Source: Staphylococcus phage vB_Sau_S24. From it: a stretch of DNA of 64,000 nt. The stretch lies in the sequence record KY794643.1; one strand, given 5' to 3'. Positions within the stretch are counted from its first letter, which is position 1. The number at the start of each line of letters is the position of its first letter. The notes under the pieces were generated by a model. It did not search any database. It was not told the origin of the DNA and saw only the letters and a program-made list of their open reading frames with translations. A program made the position numbers and the translations under genes. Of this stretch, positions 7,764-47,599 are shown in pieces.

Positions 7764-7766
7764 GCT

Positions 7767-32958: not shown

Positions 32959-32984
32959 AAATTTTATAGGAGGAGATTTTATAA

Positions 32985-33585: not shown

Positions 33586-34677
33586 ATGAGAAAGAAATGG
33601 ACTGATAAGGATTTTAAGTTTAACAGAGGTGATATTGTAAAAGGCGTAGAGATACTGGGGTATACGTATACAAAGTTTAATGATGAGAAATATAATAAAG
33701 CTTTTTGGGTAAAAAATATAAAAGAAAATATTGTTTTTAAGATAGAACAGAATGCTATAAAGAGAAGTAAGTCTACTAACTTACTACCAAAAGGTAAACA
33801 AGCTAGGTTATTTAATACAGTAGCTAAGAAACGTCCTGACTTAATTCCTTTTATTGTTAATAAGGAAGACCTGCAACTTCAACCAGGCTCAAATAAAAAA
33901 GTTAAAGTAAGATGCCCTATCTGCAAGAAAATAAATGAAAAACCTATGATGGTTAATGATTTAGTACGAAGCGGTTTTAATTGTAAGGACTGTACTTTAC
34001 ATAAATCATTTCCCCAACAAGTCATAGAAGCTTATTTATCTTTGAATGATATAGAATATATTACTGAGTATCATATTAGACATAATAATAAAAATAGATA
34101 TATAGATATTATGATTCCTAGTAAAAATATAGCTATCGAAATTCACGGTTATCAACATTACAATGATGTCGTATATTGGAAAAACACGTTAGAGCATCAT
34201 GAAATATCTACAACAATAAAGAAACAATACTGTAAAACTCACAGTATAAAACTAATAGAGATTAATGCAAAAGAGTCTAAACTACCTTATATAAAAAGAA
34301 GTGTAAGGAGCACAGAACTATCTTATATTTTATCTATATCAGATACAGAGGTAATGCAATACGTTCAGACTAATAACTACATCTTAAGAGAAATGGTAGC
34401 TATGTATAAAGAAGGTCACACATTAAAAGAAATAGGCAATAAGTTTAATATGAGCAGTTCCGGTGTAGGTAAAAGAATGACTCAGTTAGGGTTAAAGTCA
34501 CGAGGAAAAAGACCTGTTAAATGTATAACTACTGGAGAAGTATTTGAAAGTGTAAGAGAAGCTAGTAGATGGGCAGGGATAAAGAATAGCGGAAACATCT
34601 GTAATAATATATCCGGGAGAAGTAAATACGCAGGAGAACATAGAGGGGAGAAACTACAATGGGAGTATGTTGACTAA
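33586..34677 (+). CDS. free-standing protein resembling a homing endonuclease: zinc finger, Vsr/DUF559-like nuclease core and AP2/HNH_3-type C-terminal DNA-binding domain
   Basis: CxxC..CxxC (CPICKK...CKDCTL). IDIMIPSKNIAIEIHGYQHY resembles the DUF559/Vsr fold. The C-terminus (VFESVREASRWAGIKNSGNICNNISGRSKYAGEHRGEKLQWEYV) resembles the AP2-like tails of phage HNH endonucleases. Confidence 0.5.
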   Translation: MRKKWTDKDFKFNRGDIVKGVEILGYTYTKFNDEKYNKAFWVKNIKENIVFKIEQNAIKRSKSTNLLPKGKQARLFNTVAKKRPDLIPFIVNKEDLQLQPGSNKKVKVRCPICKKINEKPMMVNDLVRSGFNCKDCTLHKSFPQQVIEAYLSLNDIEYITEYHIRHNNKNRYIDIMIPSKNIAIEIHGYQHYNDVVYWKNTLEHHEISTTIKKQYCKTHSIKLIEINAKESKLPYIKRSVRSTELSYILSISDTEVMQYVQTNNYILREMVAMYKEGHTLKEIGNKFNMSSSGVGKRMTQLGLKSRGKRPVKCITTGEVFESVREASRWAGIKNSGNICNNISGRSKYAGEHRGEKLQWEYVD

Positions 34678-35214
34678 TAAGAAACAAATAAAAACAAATC
34701 AAAACAAATCTAAGTACCTGGGAATTCTTTTACCTCTCCCACTCAGCCTATTACTTACTACCGACTTTCCTAACTACTTATTCTATAGTTATACTATTCA
34801 TTTATTATACAATAGTAAACTATAGTATTCTACCTGTAAACTATGCTGAAGAGGTAGTAATCTATTGTTATTATATAATAAACTTATCTAATGGTATGTT
34901 AATCTATGATGTTACACAAATATAGAAAATAGCTTAAATTTAGAAAATATATAAAACTTTCCCTAGGGGAAAAGTATATACCTATGTACTATAAAGGCTG
35001 TAGGTATGAGATTCTATATTTTAGTATTCTTATGTTACACAAATATATCCGCTTCAATTACAATTAATTGTTGACGGATATGAAGCGGTATGTTATACTT
35101 AGTATATAAAGTTAAGAGGAGGAGTTAATTATGACTAGAGAAGAAATGGAAATGGAACAAGCTAGACAAGACTACGTAACTGCAAAAACAATCAGAAACT
35201 TTTAATCAAAAGTA

Positions 35215-35243
35215 TTGACATTCAATAAGTAGTATGGTAAGAT
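35215..35243 (+). promoter_or_regulatory. conserved promoter/leader module, copy 3
   Basis: TTGACATTCAATAAGTAGTATGGTAAGATTAGTATATAATCAATTAGGAGGAG. Confidence 0.5.
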
Positions 35244-35272
35244 TAGTATATAATCAATTAGGAGGAGAAGTA

Positions 35273-36064
35273 ATGAAATTTCATTTAAATAGTAATATTG
35301 TAGAAGGTACACCTGAGGAGTTAGTAGAGTACTTAAGACTACTAGAAGCGGAGAGCACTGAGAATGATAAAGATAAAGATGAAGGGGAAGAAGTATATAA
35401 CGATGTATATGATAAAGGAGCTTTCTATACAGTAACTGATGAGGCTGAGGATTCAGCATTGCCTGTAGGTGCTATTCTTCAACATCAACATGGTAGAATG
35501 TTTAGAGATTCACAAGGGAATCTATGTATTATCTCTAGACCATCTCTTTTAAATAGAGGACATGTGAATGGTGATGAAATTAAAAAACAACGTTTTGAAC
35601 TAGCTAAACAATTAGGTATTCAACTAACGACTACTATAGATTTTGCTGAGGAAGCTAAAGGTAAATACTTCAAGGTAACAAAAAAGTACTCACACTTAGA
35701 TGTGGGAGACCTTGTTACTATTGATTATGACGAGGAAGATACTCAACCACTATGTAGGGATAAATATGGTAACTCCCTTTATGTGTGTATACATGACCTG
35801 GAGTTATTAGAAGATGCTCCTATGGGATATACATTTTGGTATATAGACGGAGTTTATAATCGTACCAATAATGTACTCGAAGCAACACTTGACGGAGACT
35901 TTGAAGATTCAACAGGAACTAGGTATACTTATCAAGCTGTACATGGTTTGATAAAACCTCTTGATAAAGAAGATGCTCGTAAGCACTTTGAAGAAGCTAA
36001 GCATTATGACTGCCTATTAAAGTATTATTCTACAGTGGATGAATTTACGATGTCTAAATATTAA
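35273..36064 (+). CDS. hypothetical protein (263 aa); the true ATG is downstream of a leader-encoded false extension
   Basis: ATG 35273 follows AATTAGGAGGAGAAGTA. A GAAGCGGTTATCCGCTTC hairpin lies just after the stop. Confidence 0.55.
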   Translation: MKFHLNSNIVEGTPEELVEYLRLLEAESTENDKDKDEGEEVYNDVYDKGAFYTVTDEAEDSALPVGAILQHQHGRMFRDSQGNLCIISRPSLLNRGHVNGDEIKKQRFELAKQLGIQLTTTIDFAEEAKGKYFKVTKKYSHLDVGDLVTIDYDEEDTQPLCRDKYGNSLYVCIHDLELLEDAPMGYTFWYIDGVYNRTNNVLEATLDGDFEDSTGTRYTYQAVHGLIKPLDKEDARKHFEEAKHYDCLLKYYSTVDEFTMSKY

Positions 36065-36195
36065 TTAACAATTGAAGCGGTTATCCGCTTCTCCTACTTA
36101 GAGTATATAAGTAATTGTATATTGTAAGTAGGAGTGATTAACCTACAGACCTTTTAGACTGAGGTCGAGTCATTTTGGTTTGTTCCAAACGCCGG

Positions 36196-36226
36196 CACCC
36201 TATTGGCAGATAGGGTGTTTTTTTTA
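36196..36226 (+). terminator. strong rho-independent terminator (CACCCTAT-tggcag-ATAGGGTG followed by T8) ending a 160-nt non-coding segment that contains four hairpins
   Basis: Read directly from the sequence. Confidence 0.75.
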
Positions 36227-36234
36227 TTTATCTG

Positions 36235-36263
36235 TTGACAAGTAGTAAGTAGTGTGGTAAGAT
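36235..36263 (+). promoter_or_regulatory. conserved promoter/leader module, copy 4
   Basis: TTGACAAGTAGTAAGTAGTGTGGTAAGATTAGTATATAAATTAATTAGGAGTGG. Confidence 0.5.
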
Positions 36264-36293
36264 TAGTATATAAATTAATTAGGAGTGGTTACA

Positions 36294-36587
36294 ATGATTA
36301 GTATTTATTTACGTAGGGATTATAGTAAAAATAAATTAAAAGGTATCCTTAAAGAAATAAAAGGGTTTGCTCCTAGGGAGTTAACCTATGGTGTTGACAA
36401 TGTAGAAGCGGATGTTAATATTGAGGGATTATTAAGGGATGATGTAGATATATTTTATTCTTTAACATTACGTTACCCTGATGATATTAATATCCTAGTA
36501 GGAGATAGCGGGTATATGATAATGTACCAGGATGATTATCTTACAATTCCTGGGCTGAGAGTGGTTATAGAGGAGGCGTTATTATGA
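36294..36587 (+). CDS. ~100-aa paralogous family, tandem copy 1 of 6
   Basis: MISIYLRRDYSKNKLKGILKEIKGFAPRELTYGVDNVEADVNIEG. Consensus: M-I-x-I-(F/Y)-x(4)-Y-x-K-x-x-L-x-x-L-L-x-x-I-x(6)-R-x-L-T-Y-x(7-9)-(E/D)-A-D-V. Confidence 0.6.
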   Translation: MISIYLRRDYSKNKLKGILKEIKGFAPRELTYGVDNVEADVNIEGLLRDDVDIFYSLTLRYPDDINILVGDSGYMIMYQDDYLTIPGLRVVIEEALL

Positions 36588-36766
36588 ATAAAGTATTAGA
36601 ATTTGTTATGTATTATATATTGTATTTAGTAGCAGGATTTATAGGTGTTTGTGTAGGTAATTTAGTTACAGGAGGAGATATTAATCCTTTTACCTTTTGG
36701 TTACCTTATGTATTTGCTTTAATATTTGCTATAGTAGATTATAGAAGTAGTAACAAGGAGGAATAG
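36584..36766 (+). CDS. small membrane protein (60 aa)
   Basis: ATGA overlap; two TM helices. Confidence 0.45.
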   Translation: MNKVLEFVMYYILYLVAGFIGVCVGNLVTGGDINPFTFWLPYVFALIFAIVDYRSSNKEE

Positions 36767-36768
36767 AT

Positions 36769-37068
36769 ATGATAATATTATACAGAGAGAACTTCAAAAG
36801 AGATACAATGTCAGAACTGCTTACACTAATACAGGATATTAAGCCTGATTGGACTTATTCCTTTAATGATGATAGTGAAGCGGATGTAAAGGTTATAAAG
36901 CATACTGGAAGTAGTTTACCTGATACCGCAGAGGAATTAGTTGAAAGTACTGGAGGATTAGTTATATCTATAGTTGGGAATGGTTGTGTATCAGAATGCC
37001 CTAAGGAATTTAATGCAGGTATGACTGATGTTAGAGAACATATTAGAACATACACATATGGAAAGTAA
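36769..37068 (+). CDS. ~100-aa paralogous family, tandem copy 2
   Basis: MIILYRENFKRDTMSELLTLIQDIKPDWTYSFNDDSEADVKVIKH. RBS AAGGAGGAATAG. Confidence 0.6.
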   Translation: MIILYRENFKRDTMSELLTLIQDIKPDWTYSFNDDSEADVKVIKHTGSSLPDTAEELVESTGGLVISIVGNGCVSECPKEFNAGMTDVREHIRTYTYGK

Positions 37069-37083
37069 TAAGGAGGAATAGAT

Positions 37084-37269
37084 ATGATAGGATTCACAAT
37101 ATTAATTACAATAATAGTTATCATGACTATAGCTATGTACACTCAGGTGTTAGTAGATATGATTCAATCAATCAGATATGATAGATTTGATAAGGTACTT
37201 AACATAGTAACGTTTATACTTATGACAGTTGTACTAGTATCAGGTATTTTAATTATGTTTGGCATTTAG
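37084..37269 (+). CDS. small membrane protein (61 aa)
   Basis: RBS TAAGGAGGAATAGAT. Two TM helices. Confidence 0.45.
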   Translation: MIGFTILITIIVIMTIAMYTQVLVDMIQSIRYDRFDKVLNIVTFILMTVVLVSGILIMFGI

Positions 37270-37376
37270 AGCTCATTTAAGAGTATTCTAAGTAGTAGAG
37301 GATAAATTGTACTAGAAATATAATAGAAGCTCTGTATGGAAGGCTGAGAGGGCTTAGAATTGAAAGGAGAGATTTA

Positions 37377-37691
37377 ATGCAAGCAACTATATACTGTGCT
37401 AATAGGTACAGTAAAAATACATTAAAGAGTCTTTTAGAGAAATTAGAAGCGGAGAATAGAAACTTAACATATAGTACTGACATAGCAGATATGAAGGAAG
37501 TGGATGTTATTGTACAACACACTGACCTATCTTTTGCAGAGTTAATGGATTCTTGTGATAGAGTAAGTAAAGGGTCTGACCGCTTCCAAGTATTTGTAGG
37601 TAATCACGCAGGGTATTATATAAACGGTGATTTATACATTAACGAAGTAGGTAAGTTTATTGTACCTAGGAAAACTAATATGATGATGTAG
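37377..37691 (+). CDS. ~100-aa paralogous family, tandem copy 3
   Basis: MQATIYCANRYSKNTLKSLLEKLEAENRNLTYSTDIADMKEVDVIVQH. Confidence 0.6.
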   Translation: MQATIYCANRYSKNTLKSLLEKLEAENRNLTYSTDIADMKEVDVIVQHTDLSFAELMDSCDRVSKGSDRFQVFVGNHAGYYINGDLYINEVGKFIVPRKTNMMM

Positions 37692-37704
37692 AGGGGGAGA
37701 TTTA

Positions 37705-38004
37705 ATGAACATTAAGTTATCTTATACACCTGATTGTAGAAGAGGTAGTTTAAAAGATATAATACATGCAGTAGAAGACAGTAATAGAAGAACTTTAAGA
37801 TACTCTGAATCCATGAGAGAAGAAGCGGATGTATACGTTATTCAAATAGATGATAGTTTTAAAAATTTACAGAAACATACAAAACAGATTTCTGAAGATA
37901 TTCCTGATACTATATTTATCGTAGTAGGTGATTATTGGGAAATATATTATCGAGGGGAAGGGTTAGGTTTAATGAGTGCACTTCCTATTATTAGAGAGGT
38001 ATAA
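37705..38004 (+). CDS. ~100-aa paralogous family, tandem copy 4
   Basis: MNIKLSYTPDCRRGSLKDIIHAVEDSNRRTLRYSESMREEADVYVIQI. Confidence 0.6.
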   Translation: MNIKLSYTPDCRRGSLKDIIHAVEDSNRRTLRYSESMREEADVYVIQIDDSFKNLQKHTKQISEDIPDTIFIVVGDYWEIYYRGEGLGLMSALPIIREV

Positions 38005-38018
38005 AAGGAGGAGATATA

Positions 38019-38309
38019 ATGATTCATATATTTGTAGTAGAGAACTATAATAAAGAAACATTAGGGGATTTACTTGGATATATTAATACTAATGTAGATA
38101 GGGAATTAACTTACGGTCTTAATACAGAGTATGATAAGGATATAGTAGTTGAAATAGATATGCCAATAGATGAGAAAACTGCACGTGAGTTATCAGGTAT
38201 CGACACATTCAAAGGTGACTTATGTATTATTGTAGAAGAAGGTTACTGTAAGGCATTTCTGAATGGTCACCCTACTCTCATACGTACCTATGTAGAAAGG
38301 ATGATATAA
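38019..38309 (+). CDS. ~100-aa paralogous family, tandem copy 5
   Basis: MIHIFVVENYNKETLGDLLGYINTNVDRELTYGLNTEYDKDIVVEI. Confidence 0.6.
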   Translation: MIHIFVVENYNKETLGDLLGYINTNVDRELTYGLNTEYDKDIVVEIDMPIDEKTARELSGIDTFKGDLCIIVEEGYCKAFLNGHPTLIRTYVERMI

Positions 38310-38596
38310 TGATTAAAATATTTATCGGGAAGCGGGATTATAAATATACTTTAGAAGCGGTATTGAGGTTTATTAAAAATAAGTCTGAAAGAGAGTTTAC
38401 CTATAGTACAAGTGATATGGTTGGTGTAGATGTATATGTATACGTAACTGAGTTATTTAGTAGTAGTCGTATTAGAGAGCACTCAGAAGAATTACCACAG
38501 GATATAATTGTACATATTGCAGACGGTTTAGGTATATATGTAGATGGTGAGATAGTGTCTATTGATGAACTTGAAGATTATATAGAGAGGATGTAA
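38309..38596 (+). CDS. ~100-aa paralogous family, tandem copy 6
   Basis: MIKIFIGKRDYKYTLEAVLRFIKNKSEREFTYSTSDMVGVDVYVYV. Confidence 0.6.
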   Translation: MIKIFIGKRDYKYTLEAVLRFIKNKSEREFTYSTSDMVGVDVYVYVTELFSSSRIREHSEELPQDIIVHIADGLGIYVDGEIVSIDELEDYIERM

Positions 38597-38599
38597 TGG

Positions 38600-38851
38600 A
38601 TGTATTCAAATAGTGTTTATAAGATACCTAAGTATAACGTATATCATAATCCATCTAAGAAAATAATAAAAGAAGATATTGATATAAGAGAATTAGTTCA
38701 TTTATTATTTACTATGCACGAAAAAAACATTATAAAGGTATACCCTATGGATTATGGTCTTTCTCTTTTAACTATTCATGTACAGGAATTAATTAAGGAT
38801 GTTGAAGCGGAAGGAAATATAATTATCAATAGAACAATATCGAGTATATAG
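38600..38851 (+). CDS. ~80-aa paralogous family B, tandem copy 1 of 3
   Basis: Shared pattern: ...Y(T/N)VYH.....K(T/V)I...L......L.......(D/N)I.KVYP.DY... as in the copies at 38930 and 39191. Confidence 0.5.
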   Translation: MYSNSVYKIPKYNVYHNPSKKIIKEDIDIRELVHLLFTMHEKNIIKVYPMDYGLSLLTIHVQELIKDVEAEGNIIINRTISSI

Positions 38852-38905
38852 GATAGGATAGGATAGGATAGGATGAAAATAACTTAGGATGCTTAGGATG
38901 AAATA
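38851..38905. repeat. short tandem repeat: five units of GGATA followed by two TTAGGATG units in an intergenic spacer
   Basis: ATAGGATAGGATAGGATAGGATAGGATG...CTTAGGATGCTTAGGATG. Confidence 0.8.
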
Positions 38906-38929
38906 CGATAAGATAGGAGGATGTAATAA

Positions 38930-39178
38930 ATGTTTAATGTATATTATACAGTTTACCATAGACAAAGTATGAAGACGATTAAAGATTATTTAAGTAGGAG
39001 TGATTTAATTGAATTCTTATATGAGACTTGGAATAAGGATATAAGTAAGGTATACCCAACAGATTATACTACGTATGAAACAAAATTCTGTATAGACATA
39101 GACCTAGATAGATTAATTGAAGCGGTTAATGAAGAAGGTATACTACTTATCAACCGTGGTTATGATGCAGAGTTGTAG
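38930..39178 (+). CDS. family B, tandem copy 2
   Basis: MFNVYYTVYHRQSMKTIKDYLSRSDLIEFLYETWNKDISKVYPTDY...LLINRGYDAEL. Confidence 0.5.
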   Translation: MFNVYYTVYHRQSMKTIKDYLSRSDLIEFLYETWNKDISKVYPTDYTTYETKFCIDIDLDRLIEAVNEEGILLINRGYDAEL

Positions 39179-39190
39179 GAGGAGATAAAT

Positions 39191-39427
39191 ATGAATCAGT
39201 TTTTCACGTATACAGTGTATCATCAAGAATCAGGTAAAGTAGTAGCTAAGGATTTGTTTGATGCATCATTGGTGCACCTTATTAACAAGATGATAGAGGA
39301 AGATTTAGTTAAGGATATAGAATTATCTGACTATAGTATTTCTAATGGGGATATAGCTGTACTTAGTCTAATAAAGGCTATAGAATCACAAGGTGTATTT
39401 CTATTCAAACGTAAGATACATGGATAG
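39191..39427 (+). CDS. family B, tandem copy 3
   Basis: MNQFFTYTVYHQESGKVVAKDLFDASLVHLINKMIEEDLVKDIELSDY...VFLFKRKIHG. Confidence 0.5.
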   Translation: MNQFFTYTVYHQESGKVVAKDLFDASLVHLINKMIEEDLVKDIELSDYSISNGDIAVLSLIKAIESQGVFLFKRKIHG

Positions 39428-39600
39428 GATGTTGACAAATCGTAGAGAGGGCTTAAGTAGTCCTCTCTTATTTAGGTTAGAATGTTGACTAAGTAGCTCC
39501 CTTGTTTTTAGGTTAGAATGTTGTCTAAGTAGTTCCCTGTATTTACAAGTAGCTCTCGATTTTTTGATATAGTTGTAAGTAGCTCCCTCTTATTTCCCCT
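39425..39600. repeat. four degenerate direct repeats of about 35-45 bp (GTTG(A/T)C(A/T)AAGTAGCTCCCT..TTT..); candidate left boundary of the long terminal repeat
   Basis: GTTGACAAATCGTAGAGAGGGCTTAAGTAGTCCTCTCTTATTTAGGTTAGAAT / GTTGACTAAGTAGCTCCCTTGTTTTTAGGTTAGAAT / GTTGTCTAAGTAGTTCCCTGTATTT / GTTGTAAGTAGCTCCCTCTTATTT. Confidence 0.6.
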
Positions 39601-39677
39601 AGTTTATCCCAACCGCTTCAAGCAGACCGCAAAAAGAATCCCCAGGAATTATATTCCCAGGGATTTCTATAATTTTT

Positions 39678-40016
39678 TTATAGAATATTTATAACATTAT
39701 ATTCAAATTGATTTACTTCATGTTTTGATTTAATTAAATTTTTAATTAATCCATTTTGTGTTTTGTACGATTTAATTAACTTTTCATTTTCTATAATTAA
39801 ATTATTGAATTCTTTTTCTGTTGTTTCTTCATCTACATAAAATCTACTTTCATATATTTCATAATATTTTTTATCTGTACCACAATCTAAATCATCTGAA
39901 ATTTGATAATTTTTGAATACAATTTCAGTAGATTCTAATTCATTTTGAATTAATTCTGTTTTTGCATATTGTAACACGTCTTCATTTTCCCACATTGGAA
40001 TATAGTTTATTTTCAT
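39678..40016 (-). CDS. hypothetical protein (112 aa) on the opposite strand to the rest of the LTR genes
   Basis: Clean ORF with a weak RBS. Sits just after the left-boundary repeats. Confidence 0.45.
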   Translation of the reverse strand: MKINYIPMWENEDVLQYAKTELIQNELESTEIVFKNYQISDDLDCGTDKKYYEIYESRFYVDEETTEKEFNNLIIENEKLIKSYKTQNGLIKNLIKSKHEVNQFEYNVINIL

Positions 40017-40327
40017 TTAAATCAAATCCTTTTCTTATAATTTTTTTATATAATTTCTGTAGAAACGGTTGGGGGTTTGTCCCTTGCCTTACTACACTTA
40101 ATATATTACAGTATAGTTATTCAGAAGTCAATACTTTTGAATAACTTTTTTTAAATTCTTTTTTCTTCCATATAATAGTAGTTTTTAGCCCTAAAAATGT
40201 TTTTAAATAAATTTTAAAAAACCTATTGACTTATTAATCATATGGTAGTAATATAAAGGTACAGCAAGGGAACAGCAACAAGATATTAGAATTATATAAA
40301 AAAATTATTTAATTGGAGCTGATTTAA

Positions 40328-40636
40328 ATGGAAATAAAAGAAATTGCAGATGCTATTATGGAGTTGTGGCAGATGGACGGGTACAAATGTTCAGAACCTC
40401 CACTATATGAAAGCACAATCAATCACACACGCAAATATACGGCTTTAATCGTTTCTATTAAAGGAAACTATGAAACTGTTCAGATGTTCCGTAAAACGCC
40501 TTTAATGAGCTTGAGAGGGCAAAGCCAACCGGCTAGCATGTTGGTTAATGTAATTGAAGATGTGATTATAATCGTATATGAAAATACGGTTTACGGTGTG
40601 AAAGATAAAGAAATAAAATTTATTGAAGAAATTTAA
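40328..40636 (+). CDS. LTR early-type gene, hypothetical (102 aa)
   Basis: Promoter TTGACTTATTAATCATATGGTAGTAATAT upstream. RBS TTGGAGCTG. Confidence 0.5.
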   Translation: MEIKEIADAIMELWQMDGYKCSEPPLYESTINHTRKYTALIVSIKGNYETVQMFRKTPLMSLRGQSQPASMLVNVIEDVIIIVYENTVYGVKDKEIKFIEEI

Positions 40637-40840
40637 AAATAGGGGTTGCAATACCCCTTAAGATGTAGTAATATAATAGATGTAAGGGATAGCAACACAC
40701 CTTAAAAACTTTTTTAAAAAGTTAAAGAAAAGTGTTGACAACTTACAAGATACATGTTATTATTAAGATAACAAATAAGACAAGCCACATAGCAAATAAC
40801 GAAATTAAATAAAAAAATTATAGAATAGGATTTGATTATT

Positions 40841-41101
40841 ATGACAAACACAAACAAACAATTTAAAAGATTTGAAGATATGGTAGCAGACAAATTGGAA
40901 ATTTTGAAAAATGTTGATATTGATAATATTGAAGAATTTGAATATAATGAAATTATGGGGGTTACGATTGAATTAACTACAATGATTTTTACAACAAAGG
41001 AATTAACAGAAATTACAGAATCAGAAATTGAACAACATATTAAAAATGAAATTGGATTGACTATTGACGATTTACAACAATTAGAAAATAGTTTTTACTA
41101 A
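40841..41101 (+). CDS. LTR early-type gene, hypothetical (86 aa)
   Basis: Hairpin/promoter (GGGGTTGCAATACCCCTT ... TAATATAAT) followed by RBS ATAGGATTTG. Confidence 0.5.
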   Translation: MTNTNKQFKRFEDMVADKLEILKNVDIDNIEEFEYNEIMGVTIELTTMIFTTKELTEITESEIEQHIKNEIGLTIDDLQQLENSFY

Positions 41102-41217
41102 ATTTAAAAATAGGGCTTGCAAAAGCCCTAAAGATGTAGTAATATAATAGATGTAAGGAACACAAGCACACGGAACAGAAATTAAATAAAAAAATTATAG
41201 AATAGGATTTGATTAAT

Positions 41218-41691
41218 ATGACAAACTTAAACCAATTGAAAGCAATTAAAGTTTCACACCTAGACACTGAGAACAGAAAAACAGTAAGCTACATTTCACA
41301 TGAACAGTTTAAAACTAGCTTTGTAGACGAACGTTGGAAAGGTGAAAGACGTACGAATAACAAATATACTATCTTTGGTTATTACCACACTAAAACAACA
41401 GTTACAAGCCCTAGCGGTAGCCAATCAGTGAGAATGTTCGAATTCCCAGATACTCACGAAGAAGCGGAACTAAACCACCGCAAATACACAAACGACAATG
41501 AAGCACGCTATAGAATTGAACATAGTAACAGTGATGTAAAAACTTTATGGTTACTAGCTAAAAACGGAATTATGAGTTATCAAACTGTACGCAATATATT
41601 TAAAAATGAATCTGATAACTTTATTATCTTCAATAGTAAAAGAACTTATAATAAATTTATGGAAAACAGATACAATAGAAGTTTAGTATAA
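41218..41691 (+). CDS. LTR early-type gene, hypothetical (157 aa)
   Basis: Terminator/promoter TAGGGCTTGCAAAAGCCCTA..TAATATAAT upstream. Confidence 0.55.
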   Translation: MTNLNQLKAIKVSHLDTENRKTVSYISHEQFKTSFVDERWKGERRTNNKYTIFGYYHTKTTVTSPSGSQSVRMFEFPDTHEEAELNHRKYTNDNEARYRIEHSNSDVKTLWLLAKNGIMSYQTVRNIFKNESDNFIIFNSKRTYNKFMENRYNRSLV

Positions 41692-41729
41692 TAGTATAAA
41701 AAAATTATAAAAAAGGAAGTTGATTAATT

Positions 41730-41909
41730 ATGTTTAGAATTAAAATAGATACAAATAAATTAGAAGGTAAAGCATATAAAGAATTTATAGAATTTACAAA
41801 AAATCAAAATTATAATATATATTATAATAATGGAATATTAGATACTTGCATAGATAGTATGGAGGAATTAAATTTATATCCGAATTTAAAACCATATGTA
41901 ATTAAATAA
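41730..41909 (+). CDS. small hypothetical protein (59 aa)
   Basis: RBS AAAAAGGAAGTTGATTAATT precedes the ATG. Followed by hairpin CCCTAGG-attaaatt-CCTAGGG and a T-run. Confidence 0.4.
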   Translation: MFRIKIDTNKLEGKAYKEFIEFTKNQNYNIYYNNGILDTCIDSMEELNLYPNLKPYVIK

Positions 41910-42011
41910 AAAAATTATAGAATTCCCTAGGATTAAATTCCTAGGGATTTTTATTTGTTTCAATTTATATAAAAAAATTATTTAATAAAAAAATTAGTGT
42001 AAAATTGACTG

Positions 42012-42041
42012 TTGACAAGAATATATTTTTTATGGTATAAT
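42012..42041 (+). promoter_or_regulatory. strong promoter TTGACA-N18-TATAAT driving a non-coding element (copy A)
   Basis: GTTGACAAGAATATATTTTTTATGGTATAATGAAG. Confidence 0.55.
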
Positions 42042-42047
42042 GAAGTG

Positions 42048-42330
42048 AAGACCTTTTTTAGTATAAAAATATTATTATATAAAAAATTTATATTAAATGG
42101 TTTTAAAGCCCCTCTTTCTCCCCACCTTGTCATATTTATAGTGGAAGGGTTAGGCGGGTTACCACTGTTTTACTTTCTATATATAGTATACTATGAATAA
42201 CGGTAATTGTCAACACCTTTCAGAAACTTTTTTTACTTTCTTTTATTATTATATAAAAAAATTATATATAAAAAAAGGCTCCAATTCCATTATATAATAA
42301 TTCGGACTTATTGTCAATACTTTTATTAAA
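42048..42330 (+). ncRNA. candidate non-coding transcript, copy A (no credible ORF; conserved 5' end of about 70 nt plus a C-rich tract)
   Basis: Shares ATAATGAAGTGA(A/T)GAC..TTTTTT(AG/CG)TATAAAAATA(A)TATTATATAAAAAA(A)TT(A)TAT with 44020-44090. Has no RBS and no conserved reading frame. Confidence 0.3.
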
Positions 42331-42421
42331 AAAAGTTTTTTAAATTAATTTCAATAAATCTATTGACTTATCTTTTATTATCCTTTAATATATAGGTATA
42401 CCAACAAGGGAGGTAATACAA

Positions 42422-42580
42422 ATGCTAAAATTCAAATGGAAAAACAAAACAATTAAATCAACTCAAAAAACAGATAACATTCTTTTACTTATTATAGGTG
42501 GTTTAGTTGCAACAGTCACACCTAAACTTGTAAATTGGTTTTTACTACTACAAGATAACATAAACATTTTTATTAAATAA
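42422..42580 (+). CDS. small membrane peptide (52 aa)
   Basis: Promoter TTGACTTATCTTTTATTAT upstream. RBS CAAGGGAGGTAATACAA. Confidence 0.4.
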   Translation: MLKFKWKNKTIKSTQKTDNILLLIIGGLVATVTPKLVNWFLLLQDNINIFIK

Positions 42581-42653
42581 GTGTTGACAACTTAGAAATT
42601 ACATGTTAATATTAAGATAACAAATAAAACAACTGAAAAGGAATTGATTAATT

Positions 42654-42962
42654 ATGAAAAACTTACAAAACTTGAAATTTTACTCTTACAGTGGATTTGA
42701 AAGCCCTGAATTACTAGCAATCGGATTTGACAACTTAATAAAAGATTTAACTGTAGAAAGCAATTATCTAGGTGATGTAACAGACGATACTATAGATGAA
42801 TTAAAAGATTGGTTGGATTTGTTTGATACTATTGAAGAAATGCAACAACACCATGAGAATGTAATCAACGGAATTTGGATAAACCCAACATATGAAAATT
42901 TAAAAGATTTTAATTTATCTGTTGGACTTGATGAAAATGATTATATAGAAAGTTTTAAATAA
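42654..42962 (+). CDS. LTR early-type gene, hypothetical (102 aa)
   Basis: Promoter GTGTTGACAACTTAGAAATTACATGTTAATATT upstream. RBS AAAAGGAATTG. Confidence 0.5.
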   Translation: MKNLQNLKFYSYSGFESPELLAIGFDNLIKDLTVESNYLGDVTDDTIDELKDWLDLFDTIEEMQQHHENVINGIWINPTYENLKDFNLSVGLDENDYIESFK

Positions 42963-43124
42963 GTGTTGACAATCTAGAAATTACATGTTATTATTAAGGT
43001 ACAAGGTAAGGGAAGCGGTTGACCGCTTCCAACCTAGTAAAAAAAGTTTTAAAAAACTATTGACAGTCACTTGAAACCATGATATTATTAAGATAACAAA
43101 TAAACAGAAAAGGAATTGATTATA

Positions 43125-43451
43125 ATGAAATTTATCAAAACTATCGAAAACTTATTAGAAAAAGCCGAAAACAAAGGGGAAGCAATTTTAAATGGTCGTA
43201 TGAACATGGGTTGGGGAATGTCTGGAGGACTTGAAGAAAAATATGCAATTGAGATTGACGGTAATAAATTAGTTATGAGACATTGGGGAACACAAACAAT
43301 TGAGATTGACTTAAGCATGAAAGAGATTGTTTCATACTATGGAGAGTCTAACAGTGATAGAGATAGCCTAAACACGCTCGTATATTGCCTAGGGATTGCA
43401 CCAAACTTCCGTTACTTGCCTAGCAAAGATTTATTCATTTACGAAAATTAA
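43125..43451 (+). CDS. LTR early-type gene, hypothetical (108 aa)
   Basis: Two promoters upstream (42965, 43058). RBS AAAAGGAATTG. Confidence 0.5.
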   Translation: MKFIKTIENLLEKAENKGEAILNGRMNMGWGMSGGLEEKYAIEIDGNKLVMRHWGTQTIEIDLSMKEIVSYYGESNSDRDSLNTLVYCLGIAPNFRYLPSKDLFIYEN

Positions 43452-43530
43452 TTAAATAAAGGGCTTGACTTCCAAGCCCTAGCATGATATACTTGTATTA
43501 ACAAATCAAAGAGAAAAGGAATTGATGAAA

Positions 43531-43932
43531 ATGTTCAAATTACAAAATAAAGTGGAAATTATCGTACCTAAGGAAGATAACAACGGTGTTGAGATTGACG
43601 ACTTAGCAATTCGTGAATCATTAGAAAATATCACTAAAATATGTGGAGGTTGTACTACTACAGACGTTAAAGGTCAATGGTATTCAGACAATGAACAACG
43701 TATCATGCAAGACAATAACACTAACCTTGAATGGTACTATAATAAGGCTATGGAGGACGTGAACGACCAACAAGGGCTATTAAAAGGCTTATCAGATATT
43801 ACTAGAATTCTAATCACTGAGTACGGTCAAGAAGGCATTAGCATTAAAATTAATGGTACACTATATATCATTGATGAAAGTGATTTAAATTTCTTATCTT
43901 ATGAATTATACGCTTTAATGTTTAAAAATTAA
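43531..43932 (+). CDS. LTR early-type gene, hypothetical (133 aa)
   Basis: Terminator/promoter AGGGCTTGACTTCCAAGCCCT upstream. RBS GAAAAGGAATTG. An alternative ATG lies at 43525. Confidence 0.5.
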   Translation: MFKLQNKVEIIVPKEDNNGVEIDDLAIRESLENITKICGGCTTTDVKGQWYSDNEQRIMQDNNTNLEWYYNKAMEDVNDQQGLLKGLSDITRILITEYGQEGISIKINGTLYIIDESDLNFLSYELYALMFKN

Positions 43933-43999
43933 ATAAAAAATTTATATAAACCGCTTCGGATTAAATTCTTGAAGCGGTTATTTTCTTTTAAATTAGGGC

Positions 44000-44028
44000 T
44001 TGACAAATGTACGAAAAAATGAGATAAT
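44000..44028 (+). promoter_or_regulatory. promoter TTGACA-N17-GATAAT driving copy B of the non-coding element
   Basis: GCTTGACAAATGTACGAAAAAATGAGATAATGAAG. Confidence 0.5.
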
Positions 44029-44034
44029 GAAGTG

Positions 44035-44170
44035 ATGACTTTTTTTCGTATAAAAATAATATTATATAAAAAAATTATATAAATGAATTTAGTTCGGCTC
44101 TTTCCCGATACCCCTCTTGGGCATCTCTGGTATCTCTACAATTATTATTATACTATGAGTAAGGGAAAAG
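44035..44170 (+). ncRNA. candidate non-coding transcript, copy B (5' region conserved with copy A; runs antisense into the HNH gene)
   Basis: Sequence matches 42046-42110. The downstream flank (44730-44800) matches 42330-42400, which suggests an HNH insertion into a duplicated unit. Confidence 0.25.
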
Positions 44171-44171
44171 G

Positions 44172-44666
44172 TCAACCCTTTCCCTTAAATTCTTTTAAAA
44201 TATATTTTACAGAGTCTAAACTTAAATTATATTCCTTTGCTAGCATTGGCATGGTATACTTATATGGTTTATACTTTTGTTGTATTTCTTTGATTTCTTT
44301 TTGTGTTGGTGCTTTACCTCTTTTGTATCTAAAATCATCAGTTTTATTGTGGTGTGTGGTGTGTTCTAATGGGCTAATACATTCTAGGTTATCAATACAG
44401 TTATTTTGTTTATTACCGTCTATATGGTGGATATGGTAGTCTTTGTTGAAGTCTGTTCCAAAATACTCATATACAAGCCTATGCACTCTGATATTTCTTT
44501 TTGCTATCCTAACTGTTGAATACCCTTTTTTAGTTGCAGAATGTTTTAAAATACGCTCTTTTCCTTTGATGTTACTTTTAACAATACCATTACTAGAAAC
44601 ATAATATTTATTATTTTCATTAGATAATTTTTTTATAAGTTTCCAAATTTCTTTTATTTCTTTCAT
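44172..44666 (-). CDS. HNH homing endonuclease with an AP2/HNH_3-type N-terminal DNA-binding domain
   Basis: HNH motif (YHIHHIDGNKQNNCIDNLECISPLEHTTHH) plus an N-terminal NGIVKSNIKGKERILK...VHRLVYEYFG segment. RBS AGGAGGAATATT. Confidence 0.8.
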   Translation of the reverse strand: MKEIKEIWKLIKKLSNENNKYYVSSNGIVKSNIKGKERILKHSATKKGYSTVRIAKRNIRVHRLVYEYFGTDFNKDYHIHHIDGNKQNNCIDNLECISPLEHTTHHNKTDDFRYKRGKAPTQKEIKEIQQKYKPYKYTMPMLAKEYNLSLDSVKYILKEFKGKG

Positions 44667-44926
44667 ATAATATTCCTCCTAGTTTTTGATTCTCTCTTTT
44701 ATTATATAATAATTTGCCCCCAATGTCAAGAACTTTCTTCAAAATAATTTATTTAAAAAAGTTTCATAAATCTATTGACTTATCTTTTATTATAGTGTAA
44801 TATATAGAGTGTAATAAGGAAGCGGAACACTTAAAAAAAGAAATTAAAAAACTTTTAAAAAAGTGTTGACAAACTTCCAACCACATGTTATTATTAATAT
44901 ATACTAAAGAAAAGGAAATGATAATT

Positions 44927-45181
44927 ATGAAAAAAACATTCGAGCAAGCTTTAAACCACGCACAAGAGGAAATCAGACAAGGCAACTTAGGGGAAACAAT
45001 TGTAACGCTTCAAATAGCATTAAGAAGCAAAGGAATTGTCAAGGTAAGCCAGTTCATGTGTCACAGAAATATGGACGTTGAAACTTTCAAAAATAAAGCA
45101 ATCAAAAACATTTGGGAAAACTTTGAAACAAGCATTGAAGAGTCTGACCTAGAATTACCTTACACAGTGATTTGTAAATAA
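44927..45181 (+). CDS. LTR early-type gene, hypothetical (84 aa)
   Basis: Promoter+leader GTGTTGACAAACTTCCAACCACATGTTATTATTAATATATACTAAAGAAAAGGAAATGAT duplicated at 45375. Confidence 0.5.
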   Translation: MKKTFEQALNHAQEEIRQGNLGETIVTLQIALRSKGIVKVSQFMCHRNMDVETFKNKAIKNIWENFETSIEESDLELPYTVICK

Positions 45182-45255
45182 ATTAAATAAAGGGGTTGAC
45201 ATCCAACCCCTATCATGTTAATATTAGAGTATAAAGAAAAGGGAGGAAATACAAA

Positions 45256-45357
45256 ATGGCAAATTCAAACTTAGGCAACATTCAAAAAATGGCGGACAAA
45301 TTCATGCCACCTGCAGGCTATCCAAATAAGAAGAAAAAGCAAAGCAAAAAGAAATAA
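45256..45357 (+). CDS. tiny basic peptide (33 aa), a candidate only
   Basis: Has its own hairpin/promoter (GGGGTTGACATCCAACCCCT..TAATAT). RBS AAAGGGAGGAAATACAAA. Confidence 0.35.
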   Translation: MANSNLGNIQKMADKFMPPAGYPNKKKKQSKKK

Positions 45358-45436
45358 AAAAATCTAAATAAGGGGTTGACACTTAACCCCTTAGATGTTA
45401 TTATTAATATATACTAAAGAAAAGGAAATGATGACA

Positions 45437-45601
45437 ATGACAAAAACAATCAAACAATTAGAAAGCCAACTTGAAAGGCTAGAAAGAAAATCAGATGAGG
45501 AGTTAGCAAACGGATATTATGATTCATTTGAAAGAACATGTGCACAGATTAGAGAATTAGACCTACAAATCGAATTAAAAAAGAATTCAGAAACTGTTTA
45601 A
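45437..45601 (+). CDS. LTR early-type gene, hypothetical (54 aa)
   Basis: Same leader as the 44927 gene; ATG at the equivalent position. Confidence 0.45.
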   Translation: MTKTIKQLESQLERLERKSDEELANGYYDSFERTCAQIRELDLQIELKKNSETV

Positions 45602-45688
45602 AAAAATTAAATACAGGGCTTGACACTCAAGCCCTAAACCCTTATAATTAGAATTAACAAATAAAACAAATGAGAGGAATTGATAAAC

Positions 45689-45925
45689 ATGAAATTATTA
45701 AACCAAGAAAATCAAATCGTAATTAGCATAGTGACACTTGAGAGTGTCAAAAAAGCCCTAATTTGGGAGTACATCGACCACATAGACAATAACATCCTAG
45801 GCAATAAACTTTATGACACAGAAGCGGTTGTCATTACTTCTGAGACCTTGCAGTCAATCAAATTTGCAGAGACTATGGAAGACCTACAGGAATGCATTGC
45901 AGATATTAATTGGAAATTAGTTTAA
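45689..45925 (+). CDS. LTR early-type gene, hypothetical (78 aa)
   Basis: Hairpin/promoter AGGGCTTGACACTCAAGCCCT..TATAAT upstream. Confidence 0.5.
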   Translation: MKLLNQENQIVISIVTLESVKKALIWEYIDHIDNNILGNKLYDTEAVVITSETLQSIKFAETMEDLQECIADINWKLV

Positions 45926-46015
45926 AAAAGTTTTAAATAAGGTCTTGACTTCCAAGCCCTACAATGGTAATATTAAGGTAGTTAGAAAATACTAAATGAA
46001 AAGGAATTGATTATA

Positions 46016-46360
46016 ATGACAAACTTACTAAACACTATTGAAATGGATTTTGAATATAACGGAGTACAATTTGAGGGAAATTGGAAACATAATGCCTACA
46101 CTGTAGAGCTAACGCATAATGGAGTTACAGAAGAATTTGACTGGAAACAAGGCATGGGAATTTACGAAGAGCCTGAACTAGAAAGAATTTTAGAAAGCTT
46201 AATGCTAGATATTCATTACTATGAAGAAGATATCTATTCAATGTATGAGGACGAAGAACAGGCAGAAAAAATAATTGAGCAGTTAAAAGGGCAAACTAAA
46301 AAGGTAAATAAACTATTTACAGATGAGGAACAAGCAGAGCTAGTTGAATATTTTGAATAG
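46016..46360 (+). CDS. LTR early-type gene, acidic hypothetical (114 aa)
   Basis: Promoter TCTTGACTTCCAAGCCCTACAATGGTAATATT upstream. RBS AAAAGGAATTG. Confidence 0.5.
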   Translation: MTNLLNTIEMDFEYNGVQFEGNWKHNAYTVELTHNGVTEEFDWKQGMGIYEEPELERILESLMLDIHYYEEDIYSMYEDEEQAEKIIEQLKGQTKKVNKLFTDEEQAELVEYFE

Positions 46361-46433
46361 TACCAGGAAGCACACAGAGACACACAGAGAAGCTTAACCG
46401 CTTCTCTAATACAAATATTAGGAGATGTTGAAC

Positions 46434-46697
46434 ATGAAAGTAAAACAACTTAACAATGCCAAGGAACTATACGAAAATTTATTTGCTATCGAATATGATA
46501 GCACTATCGAGGAAGATTGGACGATAGATAATGAATCACTAGAAGCGGAATTATTTTTAGGGTTATCAGATGAGGGCAAAAAGGTTTATGCAATGAGTCA
46601 AGCCAAGCAGTGGGCTAATACTGTTATGGATATGGAAGAAGAGGAATATAGAAGACTTTACGGAAATGATTTAGATTATATTTTAGAGGAGATGTAA
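46434..46697 (+). CDS. LTR early-type gene, hypothetical (87 aa)
   Basis: RBS TTAGGAGATG precedes ATG 46434. Confidence 0.5.
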   Translation: MKVKQLNNAKELYENLFAIEYDSTIEEDWTIDNESLEAELFLGLSDEGKKVYAMSQAKQWANTVMDMEEEEYRRLYGNDLDYILEEM

Positions 46698-46700
46698 ATA

Positions 46701-46874
46701 ATGAACACAAGAAGGGTAAACAAAGCGTTAGACGAAGCAGTTAGATTATTAGATAAGCAAATAGCAGACACACAGAAGACAATGCAGGAGCTAAACAAAC
46801 AACTGGAACAACAAATAAAGGCTAAGCAGGAGCTAATGACACTAGTGGATGCTATGACTGGTGATGATGATTAA
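46701..46874 (+). CDS. small coiled-coil protein (57 aa; below the track cutoff)
   Basis: RBS AGAGGAGATGTAAATA precedes the ATG. Its stop overlaps the next ATG (TAATG). Confidence 0.45.
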   Translation: MNTRRVNKALDEAVRLLDKQIADTQKTMQELNKQLEQQIKAKQELMTLVDAMTGDDD

Positions 46875-47143
46875 TGAACATTAAAGAGGTGCATAATGTT
46901 GTTAAGAGTGCAAAGAGCAAGCTCTTGCAGGAGCAGGAGCACATATCAAATCATGTTATTGAAGACTACATCACAGAGGAGCTACACAGACGCACGCAGG
47001 GAAGCGGAACAATACAGATGAACAATAACACCGCTTCATATAGTAATGACTCATATGGTAGCTTAAAAGAGCTTAGAGAAGCTTATGACCTATCTTCGTT
47101 ATCTACTGGTGAGATTAAAGAGCTGATAAAAACATTTGTTTAA
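46874..47143 (+). CDS. LTR early-type gene, hypothetical (89 aa)
   Basis: Translationally coupled ORF. Confidence 0.5.
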   Translation: MNIKEVHNVVKSAKSKLLQEQEHISNHVIEDYITEELHRRTQGSGTIQMNNNTASYSNDSYGSLKELREAYDLSSLSTGEIKELIKTFV

Positions 47144-47238
47144 ATTTATTTAAAAAAGTTTAGTCAAAACACTTTACAACTATTTAATTTGTATGTTACA
47201 ATGAACTTAACAAATTAAAAGAAAAGGAAATGATACAA

Positions 47239-47460
47239 ATGAGAGACTTACAAGAGAGAAAAAGAGAATTAAAAACATTACTATTTAACTTAGCTATAGA
47301 GAAGAACAGAGCAACTGATGAACAGTTAAGAGAGGTATTAGAACAATCTCATCAAGAGGTGATGAATCAATTAAATAAAGTAAGAAAAGAAATTGAAATT
47401 TTAGTCGAAGAGAAAGAAAGAGAATTTTGGAACGATTTCGATTTTAATGGATTAGATTAA
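47239..47460 (+). CDS. LTR early-type gene, hypothetical coiled-coil protein (73 aa)
   Basis: RBS GAAAAGGAAATGATACAA precedes the ATG. Terminator GAGGGCAAACGCCCTTC followed by TTTATTTTTG downstream. Confidence 0.5.
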   Translation: MRDLQERKRELKTLLFNLAIEKNRATDEQLREVLEQSHQEVMNQLNKVRKEIEILVEEKEREFWNDFDFNGLD

Positions 47461-47519
47461 GAGGAGGGCAAACGCCCTTCTTTATTTTTGTCTTATTATA
47501 TAATTTTTTTATATTATAC

Positions 47520-47585: not shown

Positions 47586-47599
47586 TTATTTTTTGGGGA

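Follow-up and report, generated by a model that had tools for sequence, protein, structure and literature searches.

Chi-rich DNA ends have been described for phage P1, in which the terminal redundancy is rich in Chi sites, so that RecBCD will encounter an active one whichever end it starts from (Subramaniam and Smith; bioRxiv 10.1101/2021.07.08.451572). P1 is a temperate phage of a Gram-negative host that packages its DNA by the headful (pac) mechanism, its ends vary over 20–40 kb and its 50 sites are widely spread. The lambdoid phages LLS and MD8 have no recombination module, are Chi-rich genome-wide and are interpreted as recruiting host recombination (Genome Res 2025, PMC12315714). Lambda Gam, T7 gp5.9 and P22 Abc2 are protein inhibitors of RecBCD/AddAB. 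Here we describe a 64-kb stretch of Staphylococcus phage vB_Sau_S24 (KY794643.1; the window, numbered from its first letter), in which a long terminal repeat (LTR) carries 26 copies of the heptamer GAAGCGG, which is exactly the sequence reported as Chi of Staphylococcus aureus.

Secondary citations report GAAGCGG as the Chi of S. aureus and attribute it to the AddAB/RexAB helicase–nuclease. As described there, the site was found through the orientation-dependent accumulation of high-molecular-weight DNA by a rolling-circle plasmid, and it extends the Bacillus subtilis Chi, AGCGG. Chi is active only toward an enzyme that arrives from its 3′ side. In S. aureus, the AddAB-dependent hotspots of spacer acquisition begin at free DNA ends and are bounded by Chi sites, which also limit the processing of injected phage DNA by AddAB. 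Whether the frequency of Chi in genomes is only a by-product of codon usage has been debated in the literature.

The Chi heptamer in the terminal repeat

Both strands of the window were searched exactly for GAAGCGG/CCGCTTC. Twenty-nine copies were found, versus 0.74 ± 0.86 (maximum 3) in dinucleotide-preserving shuffles; 26 of them lie inside 35049–47037 and three beyond this block, at 19903, 33968 and 54025. A third-order Markov model trained on the rest of the window predicts 0.23 copies for the LTR, and one trained on the LTR, where the word is already present, predicts 3.26, against 26 observed (P about 2e-15). Moreover, GAAGCGG ranks first in an unbiased scan of all 7-mers for the LTR versus its outside (P 4e-29). 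The initial annotation of this stretch had pointed to about 22 copies in the block and two or three elsewhere, with a third-order Markov background as the proper check. The excess holds against that background and is stronger than claimed, and the outside figure agrees with the three copies found, but the count within the block was too low: it missed 35049, 35082, 35345, 37580 and 38329, as well as 33968 outside. Several of the annotated positions were also 1–10 nt off (37823 for 37822, 39117 for 39119, 39612 for 39613, 43002/43013 for 43012/43023, 44818 for 44819 and 46544 for 46542). The five inverted pairs that had been listed, with spacers of 4, 4, 13, 23 and 26 nt, match the exact coordinates, and 1.0 such pair is expected in this LTR. 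Extended variants of the word, GAAGCGGAAC (three copies) and TTGAAGCGGTT, do occur in the window as had been noticed, but they do not build a longer consensus. The invariant part consists of seven bases only; nothing is conserved outside them, and position +8 is just A or T.

The window shares ~97% identity with two Staphylococcus phages, vB_Sau_Clo6 and Stab22 (Herelleviridae, Twortvirinae). As in these relatives, the genes of the block are Tre (terminal-repeat-encoded) genes. We identify the block as the LTR, about 34.7–47.6 kb, because of its boundary motif, the start of the Stab22 repeat and the G-tracts at its right end, which are as in phage K. The same 12-bp motif, a perfect inverted repeat with TAAGTACCTGGG on the left and CCCAGGTACTTA on the right, flanks the annotated 8,486-bp LTR of phage K, and by analogy with the annotated phage K boundaries the repeat proper spans about 34721–47578. 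The annotated repeat_region of Stab22 (1–12225, 12.2 kb) starts at the equivalent of window ~34721. The G-tracts (GGGGG, GGGG, GGGGG and GGG) stand at about 47520–47575, just inside the right LTR end, in a genome that is otherwise 70% AT, and this cluster is nearly identical to the phage K sequence. In the structural paper on phage 812, the G-tract end is the DNA end held in the tail channel, and the right genome end is ejected first. The phage is a member of the lytic Herelleviridae, and its LTR boundaries are fixed and conserved. Searches for the boundary motif TAAGTACCTGGG gave no match in Twort, in BE05 or on the left side of Clo6; for these three phages the LTR limits are approximate and follow the Tre-gene block and the strand switch. 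No other part of the genome is nearly as mosaic as the LTR: by megablast, the best relatives cover 36–68% of 35000–47100, while the same relatives cover 94–99% of the flanks (25 kb and 16 kb).

The initial annotation had named the terminal repeats of relatives as the place to look, and in all genomes examined, complete or partial, the enrichment is limited to the LTR. Clo6 (143.7 kb) has 30 copies, 27 of them in its 13-kb LTR. Phage K (148 kb, both LTRs included) has 20 copies in each LTR, its 131 kb of unique DNA being free of the word, and GAAGCGG again ranks first in the scan of all 7-mers (20 versus 0, P 6e-49). All 15 copies of Twort fall within the 7.6 kb of its Tre block, eight of the nine in Romulus (Silviavirus) fall within 4.7 kb, and all 13 in BE05 (Sepunavirus, S. 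epidermidis host) lie in the Tre block, with none in the adjacent 33 kb. In a blind scan of the Romulus genome, GAAGCGG was the most spatially clustered 7-mer. Altogether, 89–100% of the copies fall in the LTR in the window, Clo6, K, Twort and Romulus. Densities are 2.0–2.7 per kb in Kayvirus-type LTRs (window, Clo6, K and Stab22) and about 1.3–2.0 per kb in Twort, Romulus and BE05. The 335 copies in the 2.82 Mb of the S. aureus chromosome amount to about 0.12 per kb, and the temperate phage phi11 has 0.11 per kb, so that the LTR density (~2 per kb) is ~17 times that of either. No alignment was possible between the Twort LTR and Kayvirus LTRs, and the LTR clusters of the relatives stand mostly at non-orthologous sites. 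These data show that the LTR-confined word is conserved across five Staphylococcus phage lineages.

Two further observations concern DNA outside these repeats. The unique regions of phage K and Twort hold no copies versus about 2.1–2.2 expected each by the third-order Markov model, which is not significant alone, and Clo6 holds three copies outside its LTR versus 2.7 expected; this hints at a mild avoidance of Chi in the unique regions of K and Twort, which is too weak to claim. A scan of IMG/VR for the inverted pair with a 4-nt loop, GAAGCGGNNNNCCGCTTC, was uninformative, most of its 120 loci being chance matches in high-GC contigs, and the only dense low-GC Staphylococcus locus in it was the LTR of Kayvirus G15. 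A 36-kb viral contig of 34% GC, IMGVR_UViG_2773857896_000002, carries six GAAGCGG copies in 4.6 kb; megablast gave no relation to Staphylococcus phages and a short SSB match to Streptococcus phages.

The enriched word also differs between hosts. In SPO1, a B. subtilis phage (terminal redundancy 1–13185), the Chi of this host, AGCGG, is the top enriched 5-mer, with 46 copies inside and 97 outside (3.5 versus 0.8 per kb, P 1.5e-15), and the top enriched 6-mer is GAGCGG (24 versus 14 copies, about 15-fold). The B. subtilis phage phiNIT1 belongs to another subfamily and has an annotated redundancy of 5.1 kb, where the enrichment is 2.9-fold for AGCGG and 10-fold for GAGCGG. The base context of the shared core differs accordingly. 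AGCGG is preceded by GA in 26 of 28 cases in the LTR of the window, 20 of 26 in K and 15 of 16 in Twort. Copies of AGCGG that lack this prefix are at background level in the window and Twort and remain slightly in excess in K. The Bacillus phages have mixed prefixes, and their AGCGG copies not preceded by GA are enriched as well (SPO1 2.96 versus 0.65 per kb; phiNIT1 2.74 versus 1.14 per kb). This pattern agrees with Chi lengths of 7 nt in S. aureus and 5 nt in B. subtilis, and a change of the word with the host is hard to reconcile with a site for a phage-specific protein. The initial annotation had read the heptamer as a sequence-specific recognition element without recognising it as host Chi. 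Its reading of a selected, specific and LTR-confined word stands, and among the options it offered, a site for a host DNA-binding protein and a recombination signal both fit the Chi identity.

Selection on the DNA word

The 26 LTR copies comprise 11 intergenic ones, 11 in-frame GAA-GCG-Gnn (Glu-Ala-x) in ten open reading frames (ORFs), and four in another frame or antisense (Table 1). Inside the LTR, the peptide E-A-(V/A/D/E/G) is spelled with GAAGCGG in 11 of 13 cases in the window, 6 of 8 in K and 9 of 9 in Clo6; outside the LTR, the corresponding figures are 1 of 15, 0 of 36 and 1 of 40 (Fisher P 5e-5, 4e-6 and 5e-9, respectively). GCG makes up 2–3% of Ala codons genome-wide, and it stays at ~2% in the LTRs of the window and Clo6 wherever there is no Chi context. 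In the alignment of the Tre paralogs, only the copies at 36405, 36877 and 37822 share a column (E-A-D-V), and three other members of the family are without the word there. The initial annotation had ascribed some of the excess to inheritance within this paralogous E-A-D family. This applies to three copies, a small share of the total, and when the paralogous copies are collapsed at most two of the 26 are lost and the excess stays. The Glu-Ala-x spelling, the rarity of GCG, the restriction of paralogy to three copies and the lack of conservation beyond seven bases together show that selection acts on the DNA word itself. Furthermore, because the word needs a codon that the phage otherwise avoids, Chi frequency in these LTRs is clearly not a mere by-product of codon usage, which bears on the debate mentioned above.

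Several other origins of the array were considered and discarded. Inheritance from paralogs as the main cause was ruled out by the single alignment column shared by only three copies, an artefact of codon usage or composition was ruled out by the synonymous-codon and third-order Markov tests, and terminator stems as the cause were set aside after folding and a terminator scan left one or two terminator-like pairs.

Substitution patterns in alignable LTR segments point in the same direction, with motif columns diverging 3–7 times less than their flanks in three of five comparisons. Between the window and K, the seven motif columns diverge by 2.6% and their ±60-nt flanks by 12.8% (P 0.003); the figures are 2.0% and 13.5% between K and Stab22 (P 1e-4), and 2.1% and 5.7% between the window and Stab22 (P 0.045). 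Only about 10 copies are orthologous between the window and K, and the remainder lie in non-homologous mosaic DNA or show single changes such as GAAGAGG. Hence it is the density of the word that is kept, not particular sites.

The contexts of the individual copies are mixed. All five inverted pairs fold as RNA hairpins, with z from −2.2 to −5.9. A U-tail is present only at the 43951/43971 pair, the terminator scan scored only the 36074/36085 pair, and 16 of the 26 copies are unpaired. Most copies lack a stem-loop with a U-run downstream of a gene, and the array as a whole does not fall into the class of intrinsic terminators. The 43951/43971 pair has the stem AACCGCTTC/GAAGCGGTT followed by ATTTTCTTTT, with a consensus promoter directly after, and as a predicted intrinsic terminator it probably also terminates transcription. 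The copy at 35082 sits in the spacer of a promoter-like TTGACG-17-TATACT. The copy at 33968 may be a chance occurrence or a last site beyond the repeat; Clo6 has a similarly placed copy (99173). These mixed contexts argue that the heptamer was inserted wherever it is tolerated.

Table 1. The LTR, its boundary motifs and the Chi copies in and next to it
Feature	Coordinates	Strand	Spacer or loop	Context
LTR holding the Chi array	34711..47588	+		12-bp inverted repeat at both ends; Tre genes beneath
Left LTR boundary motif TAAGTACCTGGG	34711..34722	+		same motif at phage K LTR
Right LTR boundary motif CCCAGGTACTTA, reverse complement of left	47577..47588	-		G-tract cluster just before
Single copy outside LTR	33968..33974	+		~0.74 kb left of LTR; frame 1 of ORF 33586-34677
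Inverted pair, CCGCTTC 35049 and GAAGCGG 35082	35049..35088	-/+	26-nt spacer	intergenic; hairpin -17.3 kcal/mol, z -4.3
Chi	35345..35351	+		in frame GAA-GCG-G (L-E-A-E), ORF 35234-36064
Inverted pair, 36074 and 36085	36074..36091	+/-	4-nt loop	intergenic; -11.7 kcal/mol, z -4.0
Chi	36405..36411	+		in frame (V-E-A-D), Tre paralog ORF 36285-36587; paralogous column
Chi	36877..36883	+		in frame (S-E-A-D), Tre paralog ORF 36769-37068; paralogous column
Chi	37446..37452	+		in frame (L-E-A-E), ORF 37377-37691; alignment column differs from E-A-D copies
Chi	37580..37586	-		antisense in ORF 37377-37691
Chi	37822..37828	+		in frame (E-E-A-D), Tre paralog ORF 37705-38004; paralogous column
Chi	38329..38335	+		reading frame 2 (G-K-R), ORF 38309-38596
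Chi	38354..38360	+		in frame (L-E-A-V), ORF 38309-38596
Chi	38804..38810	+		in frame (V-E-A-E), ORF 38600-38851
Chi	39119..39125	+		in frame (I-E-A-V), ORF 38930-39178
Chi	39613..39619	-		intergenic; adjoins terminator-like hairpin 39637-39665
Chi	41461..41467	+		in frame (E-E-A-E), ORF 41209-41691
Inverted pair, 43012 and 43023	43012..43029	+/-	4-nt loop	intergenic; -18.4 kcal/mol, z -5.9
Inverted pair, 43951 and 43971	43951..43977	-/+	13-nt loop	-16 kcal/mol, z -4.4
Chi, single	44819..44825	+		intergenic
Chi	45821..45827	+		in frame (T-E-A-V), ORF 45680-45925
Chi	46398..46404	-		intergenic
Chi	46542..46548	+		in frame (L-E-A-E), ORF 46425-46697
Inverted pair, 47001 and 47031	47001..47037	+/-	23-nt spacer	inside ORF 46874-47143

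The LTR also holds other short elements. The palindrome CCCTAGG is LTR-specific too; it occurs six times inside and never outside the LTR of the window (seven versus none in phage K) and often forms terminator-like hairpin stems, for example at 34956–34975 and 41924–41947. About a dozen near-consensus sigma-A promoters lie in the right half of the LTR, clustered at 40.7–45.7 kb, and the LTR is known to carry the earliest-transcribed genes. In several of these promoters (43460–43480, 45191–45211 and 45614–45636), the −35 box TTGAC(A/T) lies inside a hairpin, AGGGCTTGAC...CAAGCCCT, whose terminator-like stem on one strand overlaps the promoter on the other strand.

Geometry, proposed role and alternatives

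In accordance with the polarity rule of Chi, GAAGCGG ('+') copies face an enzyme coming from the right end and CCGCTTC ('−') copies one coming from the left. Counts of '+' and '−' copies are 18 and 8 in the window (P 0.08), 13 and 7 in K, 9 and 6 in Twort, and 4 and 4 in Romulus. The distance from the left LTR end to the first '−' copy (35049) is 339 bp; from the right end, the first correctly oriented copy is the last '+' one (47001), 581 bp in. Wherever the ends are known, a correctly oriented copy lies 0.2–0.6 kb from each end, and both orientations are always present; the LTR needs both because it sits at both ends of the virion DNA. The majority '+' orientation faces the right end, the one first ejected in phage 812. 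Inverted pairs, in which the two orientations come together at a single spot, are 3–8 times commoner than expected in every phage examined, including SPO1. In the redundancy of phiNIT1 (1–5103), four '−' AGCGG copies lie leftward (18, 145, 509 and 1693) and sixteen '+' copies extend from 896 to 4972, reaching within 131 bp of the right end. This is the polarised arrangement expected if sites must face both ends.

We propose that the Chi array in the LTR has been selected for its interaction with RexAB/AddAB, a reading that the sequence evidence makes likely; its chief benefit may lie in protection of the ends, in recombination-dependent replication or in both. The linear virion DNA has one LTR copy at each end. 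Upon infection the right end would enter first, and RexAB/AddAB would load on a free end, unwind the DNA and degrade it inward. The enzyme would meet a correctly oriented Chi within a few hundred bp, with 18 '+' sites against the right end and 8 '−' sites against the left. Recognition of Chi would attenuate degradation of the 3′-ended strand and lead to loading of RecA on a 3′ tail of LTR sequence. Since nothing but the LTR is duplicated in the genome, such a tail could find its partner in the second LTR copy, of its own or of a sister molecule, invade it and repair the loss. Invasion would point the 3′ end into the genome interior, which is the geometry for circularisation, formation of concatemers and recombination-primed replication. 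If each site is recognised with a probability of 0.2–0.3, as in E. coli, 18 sites would capture >98% of the enzymes and 8 sites 83–94%. Limited capture of spacers by CRISPR systems, as well as LTR mosaicism, may be side effects of the same event or alternative benefits. For this phage, we infer the steps of loading, attenuation, RecA loading and tail invasion.

A number of points weigh against this proposal. The action of RexAB on this phage is itself inferred, and our literature search turned up no genetics of Kayvirus with rexAB or recA hosts; up to 2021, neither a direct biochemical interaction between S. aureus AddAB and GAAGCGG nor hotspot activity of the word had been reported. These phages bring a RecA/UvsX-like recombinase and SbcCD-like nucleases of their own, and RecA loading by the host may thus be dispensable to them. 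The bias in orientation is modest, as seen from the P value of 0.08 in the window and the 4:4 ratio in Romulus, and the '+' copies are spread along the whole LTR instead of being polarised to one end. The '+' bias in coding regions could also come from the ease of fitting GAA-GCG-G into a sense strand, although SPO1 keeps its '+' excess where genes lie on the '−' strand. Two of the five comparisons of motif and flank divergence were not significant. Paired copies fold as RNA hairpins, one of them terminator-like, and a share of the signal may thus have another function as well. Finally, Listeria phage A511 (LTR of only 3.1 kb), taken as a blind test, yielded no comparable clustered word, the best being GCGGGA with 5 copies inside versus 9 outside. 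With so short a repeat its case is of limited weight, but it does not support universality, and the pattern is not claimed for the whole family Herelleviridae.

Other explanations can be set against interaction with RexAB/AddAB as the selected function. One accepts the copies as Chi and assigns them a different main role, namely recombination that primes replication or shuffles LTR cassettes, or the limiting of fragments that serve as CRISPR substrates. The LTR is indeed the most mosaic region, with the relative coverage given above, sites turn over between relatives, Chi bounds the spacer hotspots of staphylococci, and Chi in P1 and in Rec-less lambdoid phages has been proposed to serve recombination-dependent growth. 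However, the underlying event, RexAB entering at an end and recognising Chi, is the same and compatible with protection, while the confinement to duplicated ends and the oriented copies near both of them fit an end-related role better. Moreover, the phage has its own recombinase, and one report (PMC10434264) describes CRISPR as uncommon in S. aureus, so we regard a main role of this kind as unlikely. It is much harder to uphold that the heptamer is a transcription-factor or nucleoid-protein site for early host-takeover genes and coincides with Chi by accident. Such a site would be in keeping with an LTR that has the earliest genes and many near-consensus promoters, with the copy in a promoter spacer at 35082 and with several other intergenic copies. 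The copies nevertheless have no fixed spacing or orientation to promoters and 11 of them are in-frame codons, which also speaks against the phage DNA-binding protein suggested by the initial annotation if this is taken as a transcription factor. Conservation ends at 7 nt, a single copy is no palindrome, and the word is exactly host Chi and switches to the B. subtilis Chi in two Bacillus lineages with unrelated LTR genes; we therefore consider a regulator site very improbable.

The heptamer could also be functionless in itself, a by-product of GC-rich stems of RNA hairpins or terminators and of the paralogous E-A-D motif. Ten copies do form five stably folding inverted pairs, one with a U-tail, such pairs are in excess in every phage examined, and three copies share the E-A-D-V column. 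Yet the majority of copies are unpaired and only three are paralogous, and other hairpins of the LTR use other stems, such as AGGGCTTG and CCCTAGG. After removal of the hairpin arms and paralogous columns, at least 13 independent single copies remain versus an expectation below 1. The synonymous-codon test shows that GCG is selected only in the Chi context, and a by-product fails to explain the same word in non-homologous LTRs or its change with the host, so that we give this explanation hardly any credence. A target of restriction–modification, methylation or defence, or a packaging (terminase) signal, both options of the initial annotation, would account for confinement to the terminal region where packaging cuts occur, and Type IIS and Type III recognition sites are typically short and asymmetric. 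Restriction targets, however, are normally avoided and not enriched about 100-fold, the copies are spread over 12.9 kb, and the ends carry a boundary inverted repeat of their own (12 bp) together with G-tracts. Our literature search found no link of the word to such a system, and its change to the Bacillus Chi in Bacillus phages fits Chi instead; the chance of this last explanation appears negligible.

Comparison with known systems and significance

Chi sites and Chi-rich phage ends are known already; what appears to be new here is their occurrence in a lytic Gram-positive myovirus, in a fixed LTR, with near-total confinement and in inverted pairs. A full-text literature search, in which subscription journals were mostly outside coverage, found no earlier paper tying GAAGCGG or Chi to the terminal repeats of Kayvirus, Twort-like phages or Herelleviridae. 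Phage therapy of S. aureus relies mainly on Kayvirus and Twort-like phages. A cis-acting Chi array would be a counter-defence written in DNA instead of an inhibitor protein, and it would give a function to part of the LTR. Three questions become open to test: restriction by RexAB in the absence of Chi, the start of replication by LTR–LTR recombination, and a limit on host range across staphylococci set by the match between Chi and enzyme.

The enrichment of AGCGG in two Bacillus phage lineages suggests a principle that extends beyond one genus, and phage LTRs could be mined to infer the Chi of hosts where none is known. It is conceivable, though somewhat less likely than not, that Herelleviridae LTRs in general are Chi-loaded, sacrificial and recombinogenic end modules through which AddAB/RexAB is fed host Chi in both orientations and not blocked, resection of the ends being turned into RecA-loaded LTR tails from which concatemers or recombination-dependent replication would start. 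If this were true, the LTR-enriched word would report the Chi specificity of the host, allowing unknown Chi sequences of Firmicutes to be read from phages, and Chi content would be a host-range determinant for therapeutic Kayviruses. Separately, RefSeq annotates gp21.6 of SPO1 (32793–33011) as 'host RecBCD nuclease inhibitor'; if the annotation is correct, SPO1 would pair a protein inhibitor with a Chi-rich terminal redundancy.

Compared with chromosomal Chi of S. aureus, the LTR array has the same sequence, needs the 7-mer and not the 5-mer core, presumably serves the same enzyme and would be expected to act in dependence on orientation. Unlike the chromosome, the LTR keeps both orientations, often as inverted pairs, and uses a GCG codon that is otherwise avoided. 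The lambdoid phages LLS and MD8 resemble the present phages in being enriched in host Chi. In contrast to them, Twort-like phages are essentially without Chi outside the LTR and have recombination genes: the window and its relatives together encode a UvsX/RecA-like repair recombinase, recombination exonucleases A and B, a resolvase and SbcCD-like nucleases. Lambda Gam, T7 gp5.9 and P22 Abc2 address the same problem by protecting ends with a blocking protein, whereas here a putative cis-acting DNA element would redirect the enzyme.

Coliphage P1, the nearest counterpart, shares linear virion DNA, a recombining terminal redundancy and a concentration of Chi in or near the terminal repeats with the phages described here, so that terminally redundant linear DNA with Chi in the redundancy is found in both; headful packaging with variable ends and a temperate, plasmid life cycle that needs circularisation belong to P1 only. 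Unlike P1, vB_Sau_S24 and its relatives are strictly lytic Gram-positive myoviruses facing an AddAB-type enzyme, with fixed repeats of 8–13 kb, defined ends, Chi confined almost wholly to the repeat and a recombinase of their own.

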